Assembly: GCA_963771275.1 (NCBI GenBank) | Contig: CAVYSW010000003.1 | Coordinates: 1,696,001-1,760,000, forward strand | Length of the DNA: 64,000 nucleotides | Origin: an uncultured Gemmatimonadales bacterium | GTDB taxonomy: Bacteria; Gemmatimonadota; Gemmatimonadetes; Gemmatimonadales; GWC2-71-9 | Direction: 5' to 3' | Shown: one piece after another, positions 11,220 to 41,314 of the stretch | Layout: each line of letters starts with the position of its first letter | Numbering within the stretch: the stretch's first letter is position 1 | The notes under the pieces: model-generated | Told to the model about the DNA's origin: nothing | Databases searched by the model: none | The model's input: the letters and a program-made list of their open reading frames with translations, nothing else | Program-made: the position numbers and the translations under genes

Positions 11220-11636
11220 ATGCTGCGCAACACCAAGGGCTTCACCCTCATCGAGCTGCTGATCGTCGTCGTGATCATCGGCATCCTGGCGGCGATCGCA
11301 ATCCCGAAGTTCGCGAGCACGAAGGAGAAGGCATACCTGGCCTCGATGAAGTCCGACCTTCGTAACGGCGCGACCGCCCAGGAAGGCTACTTCGCCGACA
11401 ACCAGGTGTACCTCAGCGGCGTCGCCAGCAATCTGGCCGGTGTGGCGACCCCGCTCGCCGCCATGGGCAACTTTACGCCCTCGGCTGGCGTGACGATCAC
11501 TTTCACCGCGACCGGTGGCACGGGCTGGAGCGCCGTCACGACGCACAGCGCGACCGCCAAGACCTGCGCCATCTTCATCAACGTGGCCGCGGTGGCCCCG
11601 GCGACGGTCGACGGCGAGCCGAAGTGCACGCCGTAA
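11220..11636 (+). CDS. pilA: Major type IVa pilin
   Basis: Short leader MLRNTKG/FTLIELLIVVVIIGILAAIAIP, C-terminal Cys pair, RBS GAGGAG. Confidence 0.9.
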   Translation: MLRNTKGFTLIELLIVVVIIGILAAIAIPKFASTKEKAYLASMKSDLRNGATAQEGYFADNQVYLSGVASNLAGVATPLAAMGNFTPSAGVTITFTATGGTGWSAVTTHSATAKTCAIFINVAAVAPATVDGEPKCTP

Positions 11637-11663
11637 TCGCGGACCGCACACGCTGATCCTGGG

Positions 11664-11700
11664 AACGGGCGGCGGTCGTATCTGGCTGCCGCCCGTTTCT
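11664..11700 (+). terminator. Stem-loop between the two pilin genes (terminator or mRNA-stabilising hairpin)
   Basis: AACGGGCGGCGGTC-loop-GGCTGCCGCCCGTT followed by a short T tract. Confidence 0.55.
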
Positions 11701-11727
11701 CTGAGACTCACACGGGGAGGCCTGATC

Positions 11728-12144
11728 ATGTACGGCGCAGTGCCGACCATCACGTGGTCCGACCGGCGTGGCTTCACGCTGATTGAGCTGATGATTGTGG
11801 TGGTGATCATCGGGATCCTCGCCGCCATCGCGATCCCCAAGTTCGCCAGCACGAAGGAGAAGGCGTACCTGGCCACGATGAAGTCCGATCTCCGGAACCT
11901 GGCCACCCAGGAGGAGAGCTACTACTACGATAACAGCGTGTACTACGGCGGCGCGGTGCCCAACGCGGCCCTCGGTTTCTCCGCTTCGAGTCCCGTGACG
12001 ATCACGGTGACCAACGCGACTGCTGCGGGCTGGTCCGCCACGGCGACCCACCCCGGGGCGCCGGGAAAGACCTGCGCGCTGTTCTACGGCTCCGCGCCGG
12101 CGGTGGCGCCGGCGGTCACTGAGGGCCTGGTGGCGTGCAACTGA
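11728..12144 (+). CDS. Second type IVa pilin (paralog of upstream pilin)
   Basis: RRG/FTLIELMIVVVIIGILAAIAIPKFASTKEKAYLATMKSDLRN, nearly identical N-terminus to the first pilin; RBS GGGAGG. Confidence 0.9.
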   Translation: MYGAVPTITWSDRRGFTLIELMIVVVIIGILAAIAIPKFASTKEKAYLATMKSDLRNLATQEESYYYDNSVYYGGAVPNAALGFSASSPVTITVTNATAAGWSATATHPGAPGKTCALFYGSAPAVAPAVTEGLVACN

Positions 12145-29374: not shown

Positions 29375-30918
<1,544 letters not shown>

Positions 30919-30929
30919 GGGGACGGGCG

Positions 30930-31340
30930 CTAGGTGGCTTCGGGGCTGGAATCCGCCTCCTCGCCCTCGGACTGGCCGCCGTAGGATCTCCGGTCGCCGC
31001 TCAGGCCCAGGAACAAGGTGAGCCCTTCATCGATCGCCCGCATTTCTTCCGATCGGATCTGACCATAGCTCCGGCGGATTCGGCGCTTGTCAACCGACCG
31101 AACCTGATCAATCAGAGCATACGAGCGGCTGGTCAAGCCACTGGAACCGGCGTCCAACGCCGGATACAGGGCGCCGGCGGCCGCCGTCCGCGTAACCGGA
31201 ACGACTGCGATCAGCGGGAAGCGCTGATCCGCCGTGACGTCCGGATCACTTACCGCGATACAGGGCCGGAGACCGCGTTGTTCGTGTCCTCTCGTGGGAT
31301 TGAGGTCCAGCAGGAGCACGGTTCCACGAGTTGGCTTCAC
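30930..31340 (-). CDS. PemK/MazF-family endoribonuclease toxin
   Basis: RGTVLLLDLNPTRGHEQRGLRPC, VVPVT, ALIDQVRSVDKRRI. Confidence 0.9.
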   Translation of the reverse strand: MKPTRGTVLLLDLNPTRGHEQRGLRPCIAVSDPDVTADQRFPLIAVVPVTRTAAAGALYPALDAGSSGLTSRSYALIDQVRSVDKRRIRRSYGQIRSEEMRAIDEGLTLFLGLSGDRRSYGGQSEGEEADSSPEAT

Positions 31341-31645
31341 TGGTCGCCCTCGATCCAGCCATTGCCGGGCACCCAGCGAACCGGCGAGCCGGCACCGAGG
31401 TCAACCAGATCCGATGCTGGCTCTTCCGGCAGCCGCCCTGCCCAGTCATCGAAGCCTGCTTCCGCCAACGCTTCAGCCTCTGCGTGCGGGGTCGCGAGCG
31501 ACTTCCGCAGCTCCTCGCGTCGGCGACGCCCAAGCTCGCGTTGCACCGCCTCCAAAACGAAGCCGCTCCGGTTCTTCTCCCGGCGATCAATCTCCTGAAC
31601 CACGTCGCCGGGCAATGTCACGGTGATACGGGCTGTCGTGGACAT
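31337..31645 (-). CDS. Ribbon-helix-helix antitoxin
   Basis: [16 protein letters not shown]...[10 protein letters not shown]; stop overlaps the toxin start. Confidence 0.8.
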
Positions 31646-31731
31646 GGCACGCCTCCAGAGCCACACTCATACTTAAAGTAGGATCATACCGGGCGTGGTG
31701 CAAGAGGACGGAGCTAACGGAGCGCTACCGA

Positions 31732-31937
31732 CGCTTCCCCATTCGGGTCGAGCTCAAGCCGCTCACCGAGGACGACTTCGTGCGGATCATGACGGAGCCG
31801 GAGAACGCGCTCGCCAAGCAGTGCCAGGCGCCGTGCGCCGCCGGGGGGATCACCCTCGAGTTCGGCGCGGGCCCGCGGTCCGGGAGCGCCCGACGCGCAT
31901 CGTGGAGAACGAGGACCTGCGGAAGTACATCCTGTAG
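31732..31937 (+). pseudogene. Displaced, internally deleted duplicate of the hslU 3' end (copy 1)
   Basis: Matches 30559-30691 then about 30850-30918; ends [12 protein letters not shown]. Confidence 0.9.
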
Positions 31938-32212
31938 GGAACCAGTCCACCGGCCCGGCTATGCACCGCCTATGTTGCTTTCCTGGTCCCCGCTCAGCGT
32001 CGTGTCCTGGTTCGACAACACACCAACCGAAACCGAATCGAAAAGCACGAACTCCGACAGAATGTCTGGCCTCGTGCTCTGCTCCAATCATCTGAGATTC
32101 CGACCGTGCTGTAATGGTTACCCGCGGCTGCTGCCTGACGCCGAACGGCTGCCTTCGCCTGACGAGCGTCCTGCACCCCTGCTGGGCCCGGCCCGGGAGC
32201 CGTGCGGTTTGT

Positions 32213-32626
32213 TCATTCCACAGGCAGCAGCTCGACCCCCAGCTTCCGGAGACTCTGGTCGAAGGAGTGCACGCCTCTCAGTTGGCGGCTCGAGCAGAGC
32301 GCGGTGAGATACGCATCGACCAGATCCACCGGACGCTCCGCCAGGGTGTCGAGACAGGTCCGCAAGACGGGCTTTTCCGGGACGCGGAGCCCCCGGAACG
32401 CCAGAAGGTCCCGCAGCTTGGCGGCGGCCTCCGCGCTCGGGACCTCGTAGTAGCTGGTCAGCACGAAGTAGGACTGGAACAGCACCAGCGGTGTGAGGAG
32501 GGCCGTGCGCTCGCCGCGCTCGAGCTTCTCGAAGAAGGCGAAAACGCCCCGAAACGGCTTGGTGATGGTCGCGGGATCCTCGACGAGGTAGCGGATGATG
32601 ACGTTGGTATCAACCGGATCAGCCAC
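32213..32626 (-). CDS. PIN-domain (VapC-family) toxin
   Basis: GTG start, [20 protein letters not shown] acidic motifs. Confidence 0.85.
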
Positions 32627-32873
32627 GCGGCACCAGCCCCCGGCGCAGCGCCTCCGCGATCCGCCGGTCCGAGGGGAAGCGCTTGCCGCGCGCGTACTGC
32701 TTGAGGGAGCCCGCCAGCGATCGCGCCCTGGTCTCGCTGGGGCGGCGGAGTTGGATCTTGCCCTCCTGCGGCAGGACCTCCACCTCCAACACGTCACCCA
32801 CATCGATCCCCAGTTGCTCGCGGACCTGTGCCGGGATGACGACCTGCCCCTTGTTGTGGACTTTCATCAGCAT
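32619..32873 (-). CDS. AbrB/MazE/SpoVT-family antitoxin
   Basis: KVHNKGQVVIPAQVREQLGIDVGD; overlaps the PIN gene start. Confidence 0.88.
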   Translation of the reverse strand: MLMKVHNKGQVVIPAQVREQLGIDVGDVLEVEVLPQEGKIQLRRPSETRARSLAGSLKQYARGKRFPSDRRIAEALRRGLVPRG

Positions 32874-32923
32874 GTGACACCCTCGGGTTATACTAGCCAG
32901 TATAACCTACCCACCGGTCCAGG

Positions 32924-33136
32924 TCAAACCTCTCGGCCACCCACCGGTTGGCGCCCGTTGACGAGGATTGCGACGGCGGAGACGTAGATGTGGGTGTCGA
33001 AGACTGCCCTCACCGGCGGAGATAGCGCGCGAGGTCCCGCCGCGCTCAGCGTCTTCCCCTCCGCGCGCGCGAGCTCCTCCGCCTCCCGCGTCAACTCACG
33101 GGGCAGCGACATCGTCTTCTTGACGGCGGTCGCCAT
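32924..33136 (-). pseudogene. Collapsed TA remnant (RHH antitoxin N-terminus joined to a PIN toxin N-terminus)
   Basis: MATAVKKTMSLPRELTREAEELARAEGKTLS followed by VRAVFDTHIYVSA, then loss of similarity. Confidence 0.65.
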
Positions 33137-33215
33137 CCTTCCCCCTCGTAGACCGTGTCTGGCCCGGTATGAACTATTACTCCCCAGACATGGCTGGATG
33201 ATCAGGGCCACACGG

Positions 33216-33282
33216 CCCCGCGGTGCGGGAGCGCCTGATGCGCATCGTGGAGAACGAGGACCTGCGGAAGTACATCCTGTAG
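33216..33282 (+). pseudogene. Displaced duplicate of the hslU 3' end (copy 2)
   Basis: cgcggtgcgggagcgcctgatgcgcatcgtggagaacgaggacctgcggaagtacatcctgtag matches about 30855-30918. Confidence 0.9.
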
Positions 33283-33295
33283 GACGCTGACTTGG

Positions 33296-34988
33296 CTAGT
33301 TGGAATCCTCAGGTGCGCGATCCCACCCGCCTCCCAGCCTGATGGTCACGGTGGTCGGTTCGCTGAGCATGACGGGCGCCCCGATCTCGGAACCGGCACG
33401 CAGTACTCTGAAGGTCGCGCGGGCAGCGGCGATTTCCAGTGTGAGTGTATCGGGGAGGATCCCCGCAAGGGAGAATCGGAGACCCCCGCGGCCTCGGCAG
33501 GCGGAGCTCGAGCCGCCGGAAGCCCTCAGCGTGGCGGCTAGTGGGGCTGAGTCCCCGGGTGCCAGCAAGCGGACTGTCAGTTCCGCCGCACCAGTAACTG
33601 AGGAGTCCATGGCGAGCTCGACCGTTTCGCGAGCCGAGCGGGACGCCAATGCAGTGCACGCGATAGCGAAGCGGATGGGGCCAGCGAGCGCCGCGGGGGG
33701 GCGTGCCCCAGCGGTGGCAAGACTGTCTCGCGGCTGCGATCCGACAGCGCGACTCGAGTGCCGCGCCGGTACTGCTGGGGCTAGCTCGAGGCGCTCCGGC
33801 GCCACGCGCGGGGCGCCTTGACCGGTGAGGTCATAGATGTCGAGCCATAATTCGCCGTACGGACCGGTCACCCAGGCCACCACCCATCGATCGGACGCCG
33901 CGGCCGGAGCACGATTGATCAGAACTCGACGAGCAATTGCTGACTGACGATCCACCAGGTCGAACCTCAGCATACCCGGCTCTCGGCGTAGACCGACCCA
34001 TATGCTACCACCCCCGGACAGCAGTTGCCGCACCACGGCGTACCGCAAGGGTCCGACATCGCGCGATGTGATAGCGTGGCCGCCGACCGAGTTCCCTCGT
34101 AAGGCCCGCGCAAGCTCCGCCTCCGGCACCAACTCGTCTGAGGTCTCCGGTTTGCGAAACCAGGTTCCCAGAGTGCCGCCGGGCCGCACCGTGTCCACCT
34201 GGAGACGGCTTCCTCTCGCGAAATAGACCAGCCCGCCAGCATCGACGGTCCAGCGCACCTGCCCCTGATCGCGAACGTAGTCGGATGATGTGCTGAAATC
34301 TCCCACTCCTGCCACCGGGGAGCCTGATCTTCACAGGACCCTCGGTCGCGAGGCGCGGAGTCACCGCCGAATCCCCGTGATCCGGGCCCATGCGCATGAC
34401 CATGACGCTGAGGGAATCGCCTTCCCACACTGCCACGGGGACGTACACGCGGCCCACCGAGTCAATGCCCACGCCATCCGACCACACACGGGAACCGCGT
34501 TCCAGCGCGTCGACTGCCAGTCCCCAGCTCGCATCGCCGATGCGCTTCACCCAGCGCACGGCACCTGCCGTGTCCCACACGCGCACAGTACCGGAAAGCA
34601 CGTCAAGGATCGCCAAGAACCCATTGCCTGACAGGGCGATGTGGTCGCCCCACGCGCTGCCCGGCGGGACATCGCTTGGACCCGAGCCGCGCCGGCCCAG
34701 GATGCGGTAGGTTCTCGTCTCGAGATTGATCACGACGACCCGCCCGGCGCCGGTCTGGAGGATTGCCAGCCAATCGCCGCTGAGCGCGGCGGACGTCGCG
34801 CCGTCCAGGGGGAGGCTGTCGCCTCCCCCCAGCGCGATTCCCTGAATGCGGTACTCTGGAGCTGGATAGACCCTTGATGGTGGTGCGTCCGCGGCTGGGG
34901 GGGTATCCGCGAACCCACACCCCCCAGCCAGGCCACACACTAGGCCAGCGGCGTACAGCATGCGTGGCCGCGTGCGACGATGGGTCAC
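33296..34988 (-). pseudogene. Beta-propeller (NHL/6-bladed-like) exported protein split by a frameshift near 34320
   Basis: Signal-like N-terminus (THRRTRPRMLYAAGLVCGLAGGC), ILGRRGSGPSD, IGIDSVGRVYV-like blades; continues in the 33296..34315 frame (WTVDAGGLVYFARG). Confidence 0.55.
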
Positions 34989-35271
34989 CCCCACGGTCAC
35001 GGGCAAGCCTGATAGGGTCCGGGTCCGCTGCAACTGGCAGATGCACATCCAGGGCCACGCTATGCAGTTGTACGGCGGATTGATGTCAGGCATACAGTAC
35101 TGAAAGCACGAACGGAAGTGCGCCGATCGCCAGCAGCTCCTCACGCCCACCGAGGCCCCCAGCCATCGCGCCTCTCCAGCAGGACCTCGGCAAGACGTTG
35201 AGAGGCGGCGAACAAGACGACATCGGCCGCCCCTCAAGTGCAGACCAAAGTCGAGGCTAGTACTCCGTTCC

Positions 35272-35508
35272 CTACAGCGAATCCCCGGGCAGGATAATAC
35301 AGCCTTCGTCTTCACATCCGCCCGCTGTCTCCCTGCATCTGGTGTCCCAGTGGCTCTGGAAGCAATTGCCTGAATCCAGGCTGCACATGTCCGAATCGCA
35401 CCAGTCAGCGACAGCTGATGCTGGCACGATCATTGACCCCAACGAAATACCGGCCGCCACAATCGTACCGAGCAACAGAGAGTGGTGTTCGCGGCTGTGC
35501 ATTCGCAT
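35272..35508 (-). CDS. Secreted six-cysteine peptide P1 (78 aa precursor)
   Basis: RBS AGGAGG; Sec-type signal ending ASAVA; core C-x4-C-x6-C-x8-C-x6-C-x4-C-IILP; paralog of P2 and P3. Confidence 0.85.
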   Translation of the reverse strand: MRMHSREHHSLLLGTIVAAGISLGSMIVPASAVADWCDSDMCSLDSGNCFQSHWDTRCRETAGGCEDEGCIILPGDSL

Positions 35509-35592
35509 ACCATGCCTCCTCTCTTTGGCAGACTAGTTGAGGCGCTCCAACCAACATGCTGACATGGATGGAGTATCGTCCTGCCTGACCAA

Positions 35593-35835
35593 CTATGGCG
35601 TGGAATCCGACGGCAGGATCACACATCCTTCGTCCCTGCACCCGTCAGCAGTCTCATCACAGTTGATGCTGTGCGAAACCAGCTGGCAGTTGCCACCAGT
35701 TGCGTCGCACGCATTCATGTCGCAATCCCACGCATAGCTACTGGACGGGACCATTGTGGCCCCTATCGCCGCCCCAAGAACAACCGCCATCGACAGAACC
35801 CACGGTCGAGCGCCAAGTTTGTTGTTCCATGACAT
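35593..35835 (-). CDS. Secreted six-cysteine peptide P2 (80 aa precursor)
   Basis: RBS GGAGG; signal ending SSYA; core C-x4-C-x6-C-x8-C-x6-C-x4-C-VILP. Confidence 0.85.
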   Translation of the reverse strand: MSWNNKLGARPWVLSMAVVLGAAIGATMVPSSSYAWDCDMNACDATGGNCQLVSHSINCDETADGCRDEGCVILPSDSTP

Positions 35836-35887
35836 CGGAAGCCTCCGTTATCTGGCTGTTGGACAATGGAATGGTCGGAGCTACTGG

Positions 35888-36535
35888 CTACCATGAGCCA
35901 TCGTGCCGTCCGACACGACTCGAGGACTGACTACGCGGAGTTGGCGGTGGGGTTGGCAGGGGTACACCTGCCTTGATCCAGGCTTGGATTTCAAAGAGGC
36001 CCACCTTCCGGACTAGTAGCTCTCCGCGGTTTGCTGAGTACAGGGGATCGTTGGACGTACTGTCTGGAACCTGAACGGCACGATGAATCACCAGAAGCGT
36101 CGGTGTCGCTGGGGGCCCAGGGATCTCGTTCCAGAAGTACTTGAATGCAAACTCGTTAGCCCATCCACCGCCGACTGAAATCTGGTCAAACGCGCCGAAC
36201 TTGCTGAGGTGCCTGAGCCCGCTGGTGATGGTGGGATCCAACGCGACGCCCTCGGTCACAAATCGGAATCCAGTCGCAGCTGCCCGATGGCCAAGAGCCT
36301 CTTTCACTTCTCTCACTTCTTCGGCGAAACCAGCGCGATTGCACCACGAGCATGATGCCTGGCCGATATAGATCATCACCAGCTCATCGCCCGTGCGCAG
36401 CGAACGTCGGGGTGGGTCTGCGAGCCTTACGTAGTGAAAGCCGCCCACCACACGTTTGGCAGCCGCTCCCGCAGCTATCGATCCCACGAAGACAGCCACA
36501 GAAACCACCACGAGGCTCCTGTTCCAGACTCTCAT
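35888..36535 (-). CDS. Membrane-anchored thioredoxin-fold CxxC protein
   Basis: N-terminal TM/signal, LVMIYIGQASCSWC, VTEGVALD strand, ATPTLLV putative cis-Pro; ATG 36535 overlaps the upstream stop. Confidence 0.7.
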   Translation of the reverse strand: MRVWNRSLVVVSVAVFVGSIAAGAAAKRVVGGFHYVRLADPPRRSLRTGDELVMIYIGQASCSWCNRAGFAEEVREVKEALGHRAAATGFRFVTEGVALDPTITSGLRHLSKFGAFDQISVGGGWANEFAFKYFWNEIPGPPATPTLLVIHRAVQVPDSTSNDPLYSANRGELLVRKVGLFEIQAWIKAGVPLPTPPPTPRSQSSSRVGRHDGSW

Positions 36536-37713
36536 GAGGATCGCGTCCCCCATTCGTAGATCTCGATGCGTGGGAAAGGATCCTCCCGCAGCGACACAAA
36601 GAAGCCATCGCCGAACGCCACTATCCGTGGGAACCCCCGGCCAAGTGCGACTATCCGTCCATCCTGTGCGCCGATCGCGAATGTGCGCAACTCTGTCAGC
36701 TCATTCCGAGCATCCGCGTCTTCGCGACTGACGTAGGCAATCTGCGCAAGAAAGAACGGCCTCGTCACGCCAGGTGGCCAAGGTCTCACAGGCACGAGAG
36801 AGTATGTATGGTCGTATCCGTCCTCCGGAATCCGTGTACGTGTACCTCGAGCGGTCCTCGCGAAGTAAATCGGGCGGAAGCCATCAACAACCGTAATCCA
36901 CTCAGGAGTTCCGTCTGTTCCATAGGCGTGGAACTCTCCCAACAAGGCCATTGGCGCCAACACCAGTCGATCCGGGTCCCGGTCACACGCGAGCAGACTA
37001 CGGTTCACGTGGACCGCTACCATCGCGTCAGGGGCGTTGTATACCTGTCCGAATGATGCTTCCACGCGCTCACCGGAGACTCGGTGAATCAACGGAGGCG
37101 CTTTGAAGGCAGCTCCTCCGGGCGCGAATGTCGTTCCGTGAATGAAGAGCCCTGACGGCAGCACACACACGTCGATGGGCTCAAAATCGTATGAGAAACT
37201 CCGCTCGAATCTGAAGCCCGCTCCATCATGGATGAACTTGTGAACGTGGTAGACATCCAGCACATACAAGGCGCCGTCTTGTCCCATCGCCAGCCGGCGA
37301 GGTTCGACGAACTCGCCGGGGCCCCTTCCGGCCGCACCGACACTCGCTATGTACTGGCCATCCCGTCCGAAGACTCGAACCGCATGGCTGTAGGAGTCCA
37401 GCACGTAGATGCTGTTAGATGAGTCGACGACAACGTCCGACACCTTGCCAAACATCTGCTCACGCGGTCCCTCCAGTACGCCCACGACCGCTGACCGGCG
37501 TGCTGCCGACAGCACCCGGAATAGAGGGTGGTCCTCGGCGGCAGCAGCTCCCAGATCAACGCGCGAATGGACCGGGATTGGACGGTGGAAGAATTCCTTC
37601 CGGGGATGCACAACATCCCCGCCCGCGGTTCCTGCCGCAGCGCTCCCTCCAGTTCCCCTGCATGAGCACAATGTAACGGCGATTAGAGTCAGTACCTGAA
37701 GCTCGTTGAGCAT
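36532..37713 (-). CDS. 6-bladed beta-propeller (NHL-like) lipoprotein
   Basis: Lipobox-like TLCSC; FGKVSDVVVDSSNSIYVLD, VGAAGRGPGEFVEP, DGALYVLD; C-terminal PFPRIEIYE. Confidence 0.8.
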   Translation of the reverse strand: MLNELQVLTLIAVTLCSCRGTGGSAAAGTAGGDVVHPRKEFFHRPIPVHSRVDLGAAAAEDHPLFRVLSAARRSAVVGVLEGPREQMFGKVSDVVVDSSNSIYVLDSYSHAVRVFGRDGQYIASVGAAGRGPGEFVEPRRLAMGQDGALYVLDVYHVHKFIHDGAGFRFERSFSYDFEPIDVCVLPSGLFIHGTTFAPGGAAFKAPPLIHRVSGERVEASFGQVYNAPDAMVAVHVNRSLLACDRDPDRLVLAPMALLGEFHAYGTDGTPEWITVVDGFRPIYFARTARGTRTRIPEDGYDHTYSLVPVRPWPPGVTRPFFLAQIAYVSREDADARNELTELRTFAIGAQDGRIVALGRGFPRIVAFGDGFFVSLREDPFPRIEIYEWGTRSS

Positions 37714-37826
37714 GTTTCACACTCTTCGGCCAGGACAGCAGCAGGACGGACCTCTCATCTCCACACGCGCATCGTCGCCCAAGGGCCTATGCGCATCCTT
37801 CGGCTTGGGATCTCCACAGACCGCTC

Positions 37827-38042
37827 TCATTCCCCTGGGAGCACAACACACTCACTATCGTCGCACGGGTCGCCAGAGCAGTTGATCTCCCATCTCACCG
37901 CCTCGCACTTGTGACTATCCAGATTGCATGCCTGATGATTGCAGCTATCTGCGCTACTGGCAGCAGGAGTCAGCAGGAAGCCCACGAAGAGGCCGCCCAC
38001 GATCATGCCTCCTTGGACCAGGTTCGCAATCGCTTTGCGCAT
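37827..38042 (-). CDS. Secreted six-cysteine peptide P3 (71 aa precursor)
   Basis: Signal MRKAIANL...TPAASSA; core C-x4-C-x6-C-x8-C-x4-C-x4-C-VVLP. Confidence 0.85.
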   Translation of the reverse strand: MRKAIANLVQGGMIVGGLFVGFLLTPAASSADSCNHQACNLDSHKCEAVRWEINCSGDPCDDSECVVLPGE

Positions 38043-38194
38043 GGCTCAACCCACTCATCGTGAGGGTCAAGTACCCTTGGCTACGGTACGCCGTACTTTA
38101 TGGCACCGGCATTGTCGACTTAATGCTATGAAAAACCAGAGGCTGCTGCTAGGTCACATTCCCGGTAGACGCGGCACATGCCTCGCGAACCCCG

Positions 38195-38590
38195 TCACCA
38201 GTCTCTGGCCTTCTCGAGCGTCGATACAACCCCTGCCCTGAAGGTGCTTGGTGCGCAGCCAACCACCCGTTGGAACCACCGCTCGAATCCACGAAGATCA
38301 TTGAACCCCACCGCGAATGCGACCTGAGTAATCGGTATATGACGGCTACGCATGAGCTCCATAGCCTTTTCAGTACGTATGCGCGCAAGCCATTCGGTGA
38401 AAGTCATGCCGGTTTTCGAGCGGAAGTACGTTGAGAAGTACTTCGGCTTAAAGCCACTCGCGGCAGCTGCAGCCGTCAGCGAAATCGGTCGCGCTGGATT
38501 GCGCAGAACACACTCCGCGACACGCGTGAGCGGCCGGTAGTAGCGCAGTATTGCCCGGTCCACGCCGCCGATCCGCGTGTTCGCATCCAT
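38195..38590 (-). CDS. Stand-alone AraC-family HTH regulator
   Basis: ISLTAAA...YFSTYFRSKTGMTF...ITQVAFAVGFNDLRGFERWFQRVVGCAPSTFR; start uncertain. Confidence 0.8.
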   Translation of the reverse strand: MDANTRIGGVDRAILRYYRPLTRVAECVLRNPARPISLTAAAAASGFKPKYFSTYFRSKTGMTFTEWLARIRTEKAMELMRSRHIPITQVAFAVGFNDLRGFERWFQRVVGCAPSTFRAGVVSTLEKARDW

Positions 38591-38819
38591 AGTCGGAAGC
38601 GTTGCCTCATCGGCATCGGCTGGCTCAGTGACCGAGGGGCGCCCCTTCAGAACATGCATCGCCGCACAGGAGACGGTACCGCCGCGCTCGTCAGCCAACA
38701 CCTCTACCCCCATCAAGGCATCGGCTTCACCTCGGAAGCCTCTGCGTTCAGTACTCAAGGGCCGGCCGCCACACCGCAGCGTCGCTTCTAGTCCGAAGAT
38801 GCACCTAGGCGTGCTCCCG

Positions 38820-39026
38820 TTACATCCCGACCTGCCATGTAGCGCGTGTGCCACCTCCTTGGTAGATCCGCCACACATAGCTATGAACCGTGTGCGCAGA
38901 GAGGCCCAAGTGGCTCGCTATGGTAGCCTCCACGTCGCCATCCAGAAGGCATTGCGCGACCTCGGACTCCCTCGGCGACAGCCCAAGGCGATCCGTCACC
39001 ACGTTCCACTCTCCGGCCTGGAACAA
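38820..39026 (-). CDS. Stand-alone LuxR-type HTH protein (possibly degenerate)
   Basis: LGLSPRESEVAQCLLDG...IASHLGLSAHTVHSYVWRIY; start and C-terminus uncertain. Confidence 0.65.
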   Translation of the reverse strand: MFQAGEWNVVTDRLGLSPRESEVAQCLLDGDVEATIASHLGLSAHTVHSYVWRIYQGGGTRATWQVGM

Positions 39027-39304
39027 CTCGTTGCTGACTTGATGCCGAGGGCCTGCCGATGCTGAAGGAGGATCGGAGGGGGTCCACGCATGTTCATCCT
39101 CACTGCTCTGCGAACCCGTGAAACCGGTGAGCGAGTGGGCGTCAGGTGCCGCGATCCGCGAGCGTGCTCACCGCGAAGGTACGGGAGGCGTCCTGCTCGT
39201 CAACTGCTACCTGTAGTAGGTTGGGCACAATCCTGGGTCCCACGCCGCTCTGAACCTCCGGGTCTGCAATGTCTTACGCCGCCGGCCATCTGCCGGAAGT
39301 CATG

Positions 39305-40265
39305 TTAAGACGCATCCGCTTCCTGGCCTCCGCGCTTCCCGCTGATCCAGATGAACGGCGGCCACGCCCCGGCGATGAGGTGGTCGCGCAGGGCCCTCAC
39401 CAGTCGGGGGACGGGGCGGTAGCTCTCCCAGTGCGTGACCTGCCGAGGCAGGAGGTTGAGCCACACACCGACCATCTCCTCCCACCTGGCGCCACGCGGG
39501 GTGAAGTGGAGCCGGACATGGGGGTGGCGTGCCTCGTAGTCCTGCGCGCCACGTCGTGGGTACAGCGCGCGCTCGCTGAGGATCGCGTGGAGCTCGGCGC
39601 CGGAATCCACGGCGAGAGCGTCGAGAAACCGGAATACGTCCGCCCGGGGATCGTCTCTCCGCTCCCTCGAGGAGCGCAACCCGCCCGCGACTGCCGCGAA
39701 GACGCTGGTGAACTCCGGCAGGGCTTCGTTGCCCGGCCTTGCGCGCGCCGAGTTGCACGAGAACACGAACGCGGGGTCCCTCGCCCGCAGATGAACGCCG
39801 GCGATGCCCTCGACCCGGAGCGGCGTGAGCGGTGACCGCACACCGGTGGGCGACCCCAGCCGGTGTTCGCTGAGGATCTCACGCACGCGGTGCAAGGACA
39901 CTGCGGTGCGGTGGGCAAGGGCGGGGATCGCCGGAGGCCGACGCCCGCGCACCGCGGCGCGAAGCGCCAGCGCCACCACTCGCATCGCACTGCGGAGCGG
40001 CAGCCCTCGGAGGCCTGCCGGACTTGGGACGGTCTGCCAAGCCGGCCAGCCTCCCCGCGAGGAAGCGCGCGCGCAATCGGCTCACGTGCACAGTGGTGTA
40101 TCCGGTCCGACGAGCGATCTCCTCAGCCGGCAGCCCCGTGCCGAGCAGCAGCACGGCGTAGGCGCGGCGGCGCCGGCCGGCGGACCCGCCCGAGCCGCCG
40201 GCGAGCGCCGTCAACTCGCGGCGCTCGTCTCGGCTCAACCCGACATAATGCCGAGGCTCAGTCAT
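39305..40265 (-). mobile_element. IS630-family transposase relic (two frames, degenerate DDE)
   Basis: HTH frame: LSRDERREL...RARFLAGRLAGLADRPKSGRPPR; second frame: ELHAIL...RHPHVRLHFTP...PFIW. No terminal repeats recognised. Confidence 0.75.
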
Positions 40266-40406
40266 GGATCCGCTCTCGCTCAATACCCAATCCCTAGATG
40301 CCGCTGGAAGGCCAGTCGTTACCACCACACCCGTCTTTACACCTACCACCCACGCGGATACTATCCCCCGGGGTCCTGTCAATTTGACCGACTGCCGCCC
40401 ACGGAC

Positions 40407-41314
40407 ATGCCGAAACGAGACTTCCTAGCCATCCCGGACTTCCGCCGCGAGGAGATCGTGGCGCTGTTCGATCTCGCCGCCCGGATGAAGAGCGGGGAGT
40501 ACCGCGCCAAGCCGCTCGCCGGGAAGACCCTGGGGATGATCTTCACCAAGAGCAGCACACGGACCCGCGTGTCGTTCGAAGTGGGAGCCTACGAGCTCGG
40601 CGGGCACGCGCTGTTCCTCTCGTCGCGCGACATCCAGATCGGCCGCGGTGAGCCGATCAAGGACACGGCGCGGGTGCTGTCGCGCTACGTGGACGGGCTG
40701 ATGATCCGCACGTTCGCGCACGCCGATGTGGTGGAGCTCGCCCGGTTCGCCAGCATCCCCGTGATCAACGGGCTCACCGACCTGCTGCACCCGTGCCAGG
40801 TGCTCACCGACGTGTTCACGATGCGGGAGCACCTCGGAGGGTGGGAGGGGAAGGTGGTCGCCTGGATCGGGGACGGGAACAACATGGCCAACTCGTGGCT
40901 CAACGCGGCCGCGGTGCTCGGCTTCGAGCTGCGGCTCGCCTGCCCCGAGGGCTACGAGCCCAACCACGAGATCTTCGAGTTCGCCAAGGCGCGGGCCCCG
41001 GTGACCATCACCGAAGACATCGAGGAAGCTGTGGAAGGGGCCCACGTGGTGAACACCGACGTCTGGGCGTCGATGGGTCAGGAGGGAGAGGCGGAGCAGC
41101 GGGCCCTCGCGTTCCGCGGCTACCAGGTGAGCGCGGAGCTCATGCGGCTGGCCGACCCCAAGGCCATCTTCCTCCACTGCCTGCCGGCGCACCGGGGGGA
41201 AGAGGTCACGGAAGAGGTGTTCGAGGGGCCACAGTCCCGCGTATTCGATCAGGCGGAGAACCGGCTGCACGTGCAGAAGGCGATTCTCGCGACGTTGATG
41301 GGAGGGGGAAGCAC

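Follow-up and report, generated by a model that had tools for sequence, protein, structure and literature searches.

Three small genes on the minus strand of a 64,000-nucleotide stretch from an uncultured Gemmatimonadales bacterium (GenBank assembly GCA_963771275.1, contig CAVYSW010000003.1, positions 1,696,001 to 1,760,000; we call the whole stretch the window) prove to be genuine, and belong to a so far uncatalogued family of acidic, probably exported miniproteins with six cysteines. These genes, P1, P2 and P3, lie beside genes for a beta-propeller lipoprotein and a thioredoxin-like protein. We favour, with a probability of roughly 0.55, a reading in which the peptides are three-disulfide binding modules that would be folded by the thioredoxin-like protein and held by the propeller lipoprotein. 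The five genes, in window positions, are as follows.

P1, 35272-35508, minus strand: six-cysteine exported miniprotein, 78 residues
P2, 35593-35835, minus strand: six-cysteine exported miniprotein, 80 residues
Thioredoxin-like protein, 35888-36535, minus strand: membrane-anchored, TlpA/CcmG/ResA fold, 215 residues, assigned by fold comparison
Propeller 1, 36532-37713, minus strand: six-bladed NHL/DUF5128 beta-propeller lipoprotein, 393 residues (PF17170, PF01436)
P3, 37827-38042, minus strand: six-cysteine exported miniprotein, 71 residues, directly upstream of propeller 1

A family of probably exported six-cysteine peptides

A preliminary description of the window, made from its letters, had predicted three related open reading frames (ORFs), and all three are present at their predicted positions. 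P1 and P2 have the cysteine spacing C-x4-C-x6-C-x8-C-x6-C-x4-C, P3 has a fourth gap of C-x4, and each peptide then continues into [IV][IV]LP. An alanine stands two residues ahead of the first cysteine in all three (A-V-A, S-Y-A and S-S-A), which by sequence fits the -3/-1 rule, and the mature cores are acidic as claimed, with net charges of about -8 (P1), -8 (P2) and -7 (P3) counted from sequence. Purine-rich, ribosome-binding-like stretches (GAGGAGG and GGAGG) precede P1 and P2, and a weaker one precedes P3. When the 3.86-Mb genome was translated in six frames and its stop-to-stop segments were searched with the strict pattern, P1, P2 and P3 were the only matches among 105,491; a family profile matched 4 of 46,099 segments of at least 40 residues, namely these three and a further copy on contig C11.

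We searched a three-sequence profile against 1.84 billion representative proteins (50% library). The 52 matches comprised P3 itself, 48 proteins of 67-103 residues and three long proteins with repeats (P0029, P0037 and P0042), which were excluded before any counts were made. Homologues that keep the cysteine pattern therefore exist: the six cysteines and one glycine of the signal region are invariant in 51 of 51 aligned rows. Addition of peptides from genomic loci brought the family set to 118 members. Within it the outer gaps are nearly constant (C1-x4-C2 in 105, C5-x4-C6 in 109) and the inner ones vary, from 3-15 residues for C2-C3 and 7-12 for C3-C4 to 4-11 for C4-C5. Net core charge is negative in 104 members, zero in 9 and positive in 5; glutamate follows directly after Cys1 in 61, aspartate or asparagine occupies position +3 in 75, and histidine and methionine each average less than one per core. 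The N-termini are hydrophobic over 28-64 residues, and 35 of 48 fit a simple signal cleavage pattern. GxxxG occurs in 41 of the 48 signal regions, a count that lacks a control and is not used here as evidence.

Database comparisons gave the family no name. Pfam and NCBIfam searches of the 51 aligned peptides returned at most 2 members for any one family, which we took as chance, and a search of Protein Data Bank (PDB) sequences with the peptide profile returned signal-helix noise only. The best look-alikes in the ESM Atlas (0.79-0.83) fall in unnamed clusters and are leads only; of the word-indexed protein searches, one found the query itself and another 8 proteins. The three-sequence profile gave weak matches over 60 relatives (E 0.007-0.09). 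An AlphaFold2 model of P2 consists of a signal helix and four beta-strands (residues 41-44, 49-52, 57-62 and 65-70), with a predicted local distance difference test score of 92-95 in the core. This 80-residue model, signal helix included, had no Foldseek match at E<=0.001 and no VIA match at Z>=2, in comparisons where small domains score poorly.

The family is patchily distributed. Besides the host genome, 14 of 400 genomes of the phylum matched the peptide profile, and none of the 6 genomes of the same genus (71-89% complete) had a match at E<=1e-6. A count of 4 in 400 genomes of the same taxonomic family is an undercount, with 14 candidates scored per genome. Scans with single proteins or small alignments yielded no further loci apart from one 14-residue match (L117), which was set aside, there being no cassette gene at that site.

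The preliminary description had proposed a scaffold under diversification. A tree of 46 cores, built on few columns and with rough support, pairs P2 with P0005 (96/98) and P3 with P0007 and P0010 (98/82), and places P1 in a group that includes P0004 (95/62). P1 and P0004 agree at 21 of 28 non-cysteine core positions and P2 and P0005 at 15 of 28, whereas P1 and P2 agree at 10 of 28 and P1 and P3 at 5 of 22. Because P1 is so much closer to P0004 than to its neighbours, the subtypes are, as judged from sequence, old, with loops conserved within each. Diversification thus holds over long times between subtypes and not as a rapid process, since subtype loops are kept across lineages.

The C-terminal motif fared differently. 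It is constant inside the window, but [IV][IV]LP occurs in only 3 of the 118 family members, and 77 of them end no more than 3 residues after Cys6; the suggested recognition tag does not hold as a family-wide motif, and the LP tail may be a tag specific to its locus. P0004, P0005, P0007 and P0010 have a common tail of a proline-acid type, unlike the LP tail of the window. P0004 and P0005 lie on contigs of 3035 bases, as does P0064, a thioredoxin of 56% identity, which suggests that the three may come from one locus; P0007 and P0010 are on other contigs.

The copy on contig C11 (31119-31409), which is P3-like and was found with a looser pattern, is a natural tail-loss variant. It belongs to a duplicate of 1730 bp, 95.8% identical, in which P3 was copied together with the downstream propeller gene. 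The peptide is identical to P3 from Cys1 through Cys5 and differs in the last strand, and a one-base deletion has removed the LP tail and the stop. A contig of the independent run X3 shares the deletion, a 3-base insertion and the junction at 36371 with this copy, so the variant is probably real. At this site (L001:7466-9410) P3, the propeller and the 5' half of the thioredoxin gene are duplicated, an IS3-like fragment cuts the duplicate, and response-regulator genes lie upstream.

Propeller and thioredoxin-like neighbours

Propeller 1 passes the Pfam cut-offs of both its families (PF17170, 51.1 bits against 22.9; PF01436, 41.4 against 20), and its PDB sequence matches are NHL propellers. It has a lipobox at Cys18, and Cys183 and Cys243 are invariant in 59 of 59 relatives; these two cysteines and an HP motif mark the subfamily. 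The remaining conserved residues are mostly glycine, aspartate, proline and cysteine, with H36, E134, Y225 and Q324 (51-56 of 59, at a threshold of 80%) as the non-structural ones. Because the conserved positions are mostly structural, the propeller looks less like an enzyme than like a platform for binding. We rejected a role as a PAL-like amidating lyase, raised by a weak match to 3fvz, since the conserved histidine triad is lacking and the peptides have no C-terminal glycine; the pyrroloquinoline quinone/lanthanide propellers described in 10.64898/2026.07.10.737718 are a different group. A complex prediction of the propeller (residues 30-393) with the P2 core scored 0.01 with controls that did not fold, and says nothing for or against binding.

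The start codon of the thioredoxin-like gene overlaps the stop of propeller 1 (ATGA). Its product has no Pfam or NCBIfam match, and was placed by fold: Foldseek matches ranged from E 2e-4 to 1e-3, and the best VIA match was CcmG (1kng; Z 9.7, rmsd 3.7, 125 aligned residues). Many TlpA-like folds score as well as SOQ1 (7djk; Z 8.7, rmsd 3.5, 126 residues aligned) and NHLRC2 (6gc1; Z 7.6), and Sco proteins are also among the matches. The TlpA/CcmG/ResA class is further indicated by the insertion fold, the N-terminal anchor, a first active-site cysteine in 68 of 74 homologues and a cis-proline in 74 of 74. The active site is CxxS in 50 of these and CxxC in 12, so that a dithiol is not family-wide; the window copy has CSWC and a cis-proline TP motif. 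According to PMC2757866, Cxxc motifs are tied to monothiol chemistry and the cis-proline to substrate binding, possibly blocking metal binding. An enzyme with one cysteine would suit the trapping and reshuffling of disulfides better than classical reduction.

The host genome has two VKOR matches and one DsbB-like match, and no match to MauE (PF07291) at 96.7% completeness. The exported three-disulfide scaffold put forward in the preliminary description thus gains indirect support from the invariant cysteines, the signal-like N-termini, the thioredoxin-fold neighbour and the VKOR/DsbB proteins of the host.

To follow the genes as a cassette we used two sets of loci, 15 selected by peptide and 60 selected by the 215-residue thioredoxin-like family alone, the latter being those of 95 listed matches whose loci had not already been collected. 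The profiles were built partly from the 15 peptide-selected loci, and the peptide profile was iterated on the thioredoxin-selected ones. The thioredoxin-like family is present in 62 of 401 genomes. Among the peptide-selected loci the propeller is found in all 15 and the thioredoxin in 12; within about 4.5 kb of the thioredoxin-selected genes lie a propeller in 49 of 60 and a six-cysteine family peptide in 33. Seven of the other 27 loci hold a related exported cysteine-rich peptide, which in five of the seven has a second six-cysteine spacing (eight pattern matches, of which that in L089 is spurious; 5 of 200 control windows matched), and in three more the peptide is apparently cut off, frameshifted or equipped with eight cysteines. 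There are one to four divergent peptides per locus, and two additional peptide-selected loci (L118 and L119) each carry the propeller, the thioredoxin and two peptides. The gene directly behind a peptide (n=55) is a propeller in 29 cases, another peptide in 9 and a thioredoxin in 3.

In 5 of the 75 loci the peptide core is fused to a passenger domain of 140 residues (L046:7708-8412, L050:7029-7742, L051:7683-8387, L057 and L062), for which neither Pfam nor the ESM Atlas gave a usable match. An S26 signal peptidase gene, likewise present in 5 of 75, accompanies the fusion at three of these loci. Five loci (L097, L101, L102, L103 and L110) have a second exported six-cysteine family, with a C-x-C start and other spacing, beside the same thioredoxin family. 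The cassette machinery seems to accept unrelated cores. We also noted exported small proteins with 6-12 cysteines in unrelated spacing ahead of additional propeller genes (L045:9448-9870, L052:13761-14231, L042:2914-3090 and L048:821-1360). At L049:4958-6382 a degenerate four-cysteine peptide is in frame with the propeller and replaces its lipoprotein signal, through either a real fusion or frameshift errors. At L044:8860-14472 a peptide-propeller pair, with no thioredoxin, stands directly downstream of a gene for an RHS-repeat protein of 1871 residues and an ORF of 150 residues.

Proposed role and alternatives

On the reading we favour, P1 to P3 would leave by the Sec route and lose their signals to signal peptidase I, which would cleave behind the alanine at -1, giving acidic cores of 40-45 residues. 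The six cysteines would form three disulfides stapling the four-stranded beta core, with the VKOR/DsbB pathway of the host as the oxidising power. The cassette thioredoxin, usually CxxS, would trap and reshuffle wrong disulfides of the peptides, and perhaps of the propeller cysteine pair too. From gene order we infer that the NHL propeller is the partner of the peptides, and that it may bind, display or neutralise them. More speculatively, the conserved subtype-specific loops could recognise outside targets, and the last strand and tail could form a docking address common to the peptides of one locus. If there are such targets, the role would most likely be one in conflict or recognition, because the spread of the genes is patchy and island-borne and one locus lies beside an RHS gene; the acidic core argues against membrane lysis.

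Several results weigh against this proposal. The nearest folds of the thioredoxin-like protein, CcmG, ResA and TlpA, are reductants, and are compatible with other readings. About 17 of the 60 thioredoxin loci (e.g. L066, L067 and L069-L071) gave no peptide in any of the scans of the surrounding 4.5 kb, and therefore thioredoxin and propeller may work without one. Peptide similarity follows that of the thioredoxin (partial rank correlation 0.26) slightly more closely than that of the propeller next to it (0.10), over 27 triads whose pairs are non-independent, so a tight one-to-one pairing of peptide and propeller is not favoured. As for the tails, 12 of 16 multi-peptide loci could be compared; identity exceeded that of matched between-locus pairs in 8 of the 12 (0.33-1.0 versus 0.09-0.13), sharing was zero in the other 4, and local duplication and relatedness of the loci can explain part of it. 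Because of this, and because a proline followed by an acid is present in both tail types, we regard the address code as a lead only. A broader version of the proposal, in which one thioredoxin and propeller serve ancient subtypes of a disulfide ligand or effector system, each with its own loops, while tails are rewritten together as an address code and cores can carry passengers, is tentative, and we would sooner doubt than accept it.

The alternative that survives best, unlikely as we think it, is a split redox relay or enzyme resembling SOQ1/NHLRC2 or methylamine dehydrogenase, with the peptide as a subunit or electron carrier and not the product. SOQ1 (Arabidopsis thylakoid) and NHLRC2 (human and some bacteria) join a TlpA-like thioredoxin to a six-bladed NHL propeller, in SOQ1 at the outer face of a membrane, and to a beta-stranded domain that bears cysteines. 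The fold matches to both, tied as they are, fit this idea, as do one in-frame propeller-thioredoxin ORF (L073) and the degenerate peptide-propeller ORF of L049. According to 10.1101/2024.11.01.621559, the SOQ1 thioredoxin hands electrons to a cysteine pair of the C-terminal domain. However, SOQ1 and NHLRC2 are single chains with the thioredoxin first and a CC[IV]NC motif (PMC6107167), whereas the cassette has, in the window and at nearly all loci, separate genes with CxxS or CxxC, adds a lipoprotein propeller and exported six-cysteine peptides, and shows no CC[IV]NC in the family tally. The L073 ORF, the sole propeller-thioredoxin fusion, has the reverse order, retains the thioredoxin's own start and anchor and may reflect a lost stop. 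For bacterial homologues PMC6107167 gives no conserved neighbours in 7 genomes.

The mauB-mauE-mauD-mauA operon likewise brings together a propeller protein, a thioredoxin-fold helper and a small disulfide-rich exported protein. MauB is the propeller protein, and the small subunit of methylamine dehydrogenase has two invariant tryptophans for its tryptophan tryptophylquinone cofactor. The six disulfides of methylamine dehydrogenase require MauD, as reported in 10.64898/2026.03.05.709764. The cassette peptides, by contrast, lack an invariant tryptophan pair for this cofactor, are far smaller and polymorphic, and occur at several per locus, and such a set of divergent peptides would be unusual if they were a fixed subunit; the host has no MauE match, and the propeller conserves almost nothing beyond structural residues and the four positions named above.

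A metal-thiolate binder, the other possibility raised in the preliminary description, is disfavoured. Here the thioredoxin would keep the cysteines reduced, copper, zinc, calcium or lanthanides would be bound beyond the cytoplasm by thiolates or by the many carboxylates, and uptake or transfer of the metal would fall to the propeller. The acidic cores, with glutamate at +1 and aspartate or asparagine at +3 in many members, are in line with this, and so is the presence in this fold class of reductants that ready cysteines for metal loading, Sco being among the fold matches. Yet the main spacing contains no CxC, CC or CxxC clusters, the cysteines are even and invariant in number between length-variable loops, histidine and methionine are scarce, most thioredoxin homologues lack a resolving cysteine, and no metal transporter, oxidase or multinuclear non-heme iron oxidase (MNIO) recurs among the 73 neighbours scanned. 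Metallothioneins are cytoplasmic, have CxC/CC clusters and carry no signal peptide; the cassette peptides differ in their hydrophobic N-termini and in cysteine spacings of 4-12.

Slightly less probable again is private signalling, with the peptides as pheromones, the propeller as receptor and neighbouring LuxR and AraC genes as output. The order of peptide then propeller, the AraC-type and LuxR-type helix-turn-helix (HTH) genes directly upstream of P3 and the subtype-conserved loops would agree with it, but no kinase, sigma/anti-sigma factor or transducer recurs in the loci, the lipoprotein has no cytoplasmic domain, and AraC homology is found at 1 and LuxR at 0 of the 15 peptide-selected loci. 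Chance ORFs or non-coding decay, to which the lack of a Pfam or NCBIfam family might point, can be dismissed, given that the 50% library holds another 48 homologues, in view also of a gene order conserved in many genera and the use of both TGC and TGT at the invariant cysteines.

Other known systems share parts of the plan. The sublancin cluster has its own oxidoreductases, BdbAB. Streptomyces candidates for disulfide peptides or RiPPs (peptides made on the ribosome and modified after translation) that bear mauD/mauE have a cysteine-rich precursor beside its own oxidoreductase, according to PMC7794033. The cassette is like such clusters in having a cysteine-rich precursor next to a dedicated oxidoreductase, and unlike them in its Sec-type signal in place of a peptidase-transporter leader, its lack of a modifying enzyme, its constant NHL propeller lipoprotein and its acidic core. 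In Bacteroidota, NVEALA neighbourhoods have a small exported protein ahead of a DUF5128 propeller. The cassette differs from these DUF5128 lipoprotein loci in peptides that match no Pfam family consistently and in a propeller subfamily with the HP motif and two invariant cysteines. Defensins, knottins and epidermal growth factor (EGF) modules are similar in length (about 40 residues), six cysteines and export; the cassette peptides are acidic (charge <=0 in 113 of 118) with a predicted all-beta, four-strand core.

We found no account of the peptide family or the cassette in the full-text literature, a search whose coverage leaves out most subscription papers and bioRxiv supplements. What is new is the uncatalogued peptide family with its propeller partner; the folds of the other parts, and the logic of an exported cysteine-rich peptide with its own oxidoreductase, are known. 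Miniproteins locked by disulfides are mostly seen as a eukaryotic device (defensins, knottins, venom peptides). The bacterial family described here has more than 100 diverse members, a putative folding catalyst of its own and a propeller as constant companion. It offers a testable handle on two orphan groups, the DUF5128 propellers and a TlpA-like family of monothiol type, may serve as a bacterial model for the way thioredoxin and NHL domains cooperate in NHLRC2/SOQ1, and amounts to a natural library of 40-residue scaffolds that tolerate changes in their loops. With three subtypes, one thioredoxin and the tail-loss variant on C11, the locus is a good test case.

The island and its surroundings

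Read along the minus strand, the order is an IS630-like remnant, the LuxR-type and AraC-type HTH genes, P3, propeller 1, the thioredoxin-like gene, P2, P1 and a probable second propeller. The region is low in guanine plus cytosine (0.60 at 36001-38000, against about 0.70 genome-wide). Its further features are these.

33213-33283, plus strand: third copy of the hslU 3' end, a repeat of the integration site that marks where the low-GC island has its left edge
33296-34961, minus strand: probable second propeller lipoprotein of a more distant kind, broken near 34292 into two frames of the assembly
38195-39026, minus strand: AraC-type and LuxR-type HTH genes upstream of P3, not regular neighbours in other loci
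39305-40270, minus strand: remnant of an IS630-like transposase, marking the island's right edge (HTH_29/HTH_23; weak NF033545 match, E 0.088)

The 5' piece of the second propeller matches weakly (hhalign against the propeller profile, E 5e-4, probability 32%; phmmer against a DUF5128 protein, E 2e-4), and in run X2 a single short contig lacks one base at 34292, so that the two pieces fall into one frame. Between this gene and P1, on the minus strand at 35000-35200, one frame holds a six-cysteine stretch with no in-frame start or signal and another a short hydrophobic run, which may be what decay or a frameshift has left of a different type of peptide. No Rfam match was found at 30000-41000, and a promoter scan of the locus gave no sigma-70 promoter above chance.

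The other copies of the hslU 3' end lie at 30849-30919 and 31868-31938. Over 30849-33283 the repeats measure 71 nt, two of them also carry a 133-nt upstream piece, and PemK/MazF-type and AbrB/PIN toxin-antitoxin modules lie between the copies. The hslU 3' end is an integration hot spot that has been used repeatedly.

At the 11 other DUF5128 sites of the genome, the filter we used found no small cysteine-rich exported ORF. Elsewhere on the contig of the window (C3) we noted small exported proteins with 3-4 cysteines at 768782-769108, adjoining a DUF5128 gene, and at 648596-648877, as well as a cluster of DUF5128 genes at 752-768 kb. Type IV pilin-like genes stand in tandem at about 11220-12144 of the window (C3:1707220-1708144).

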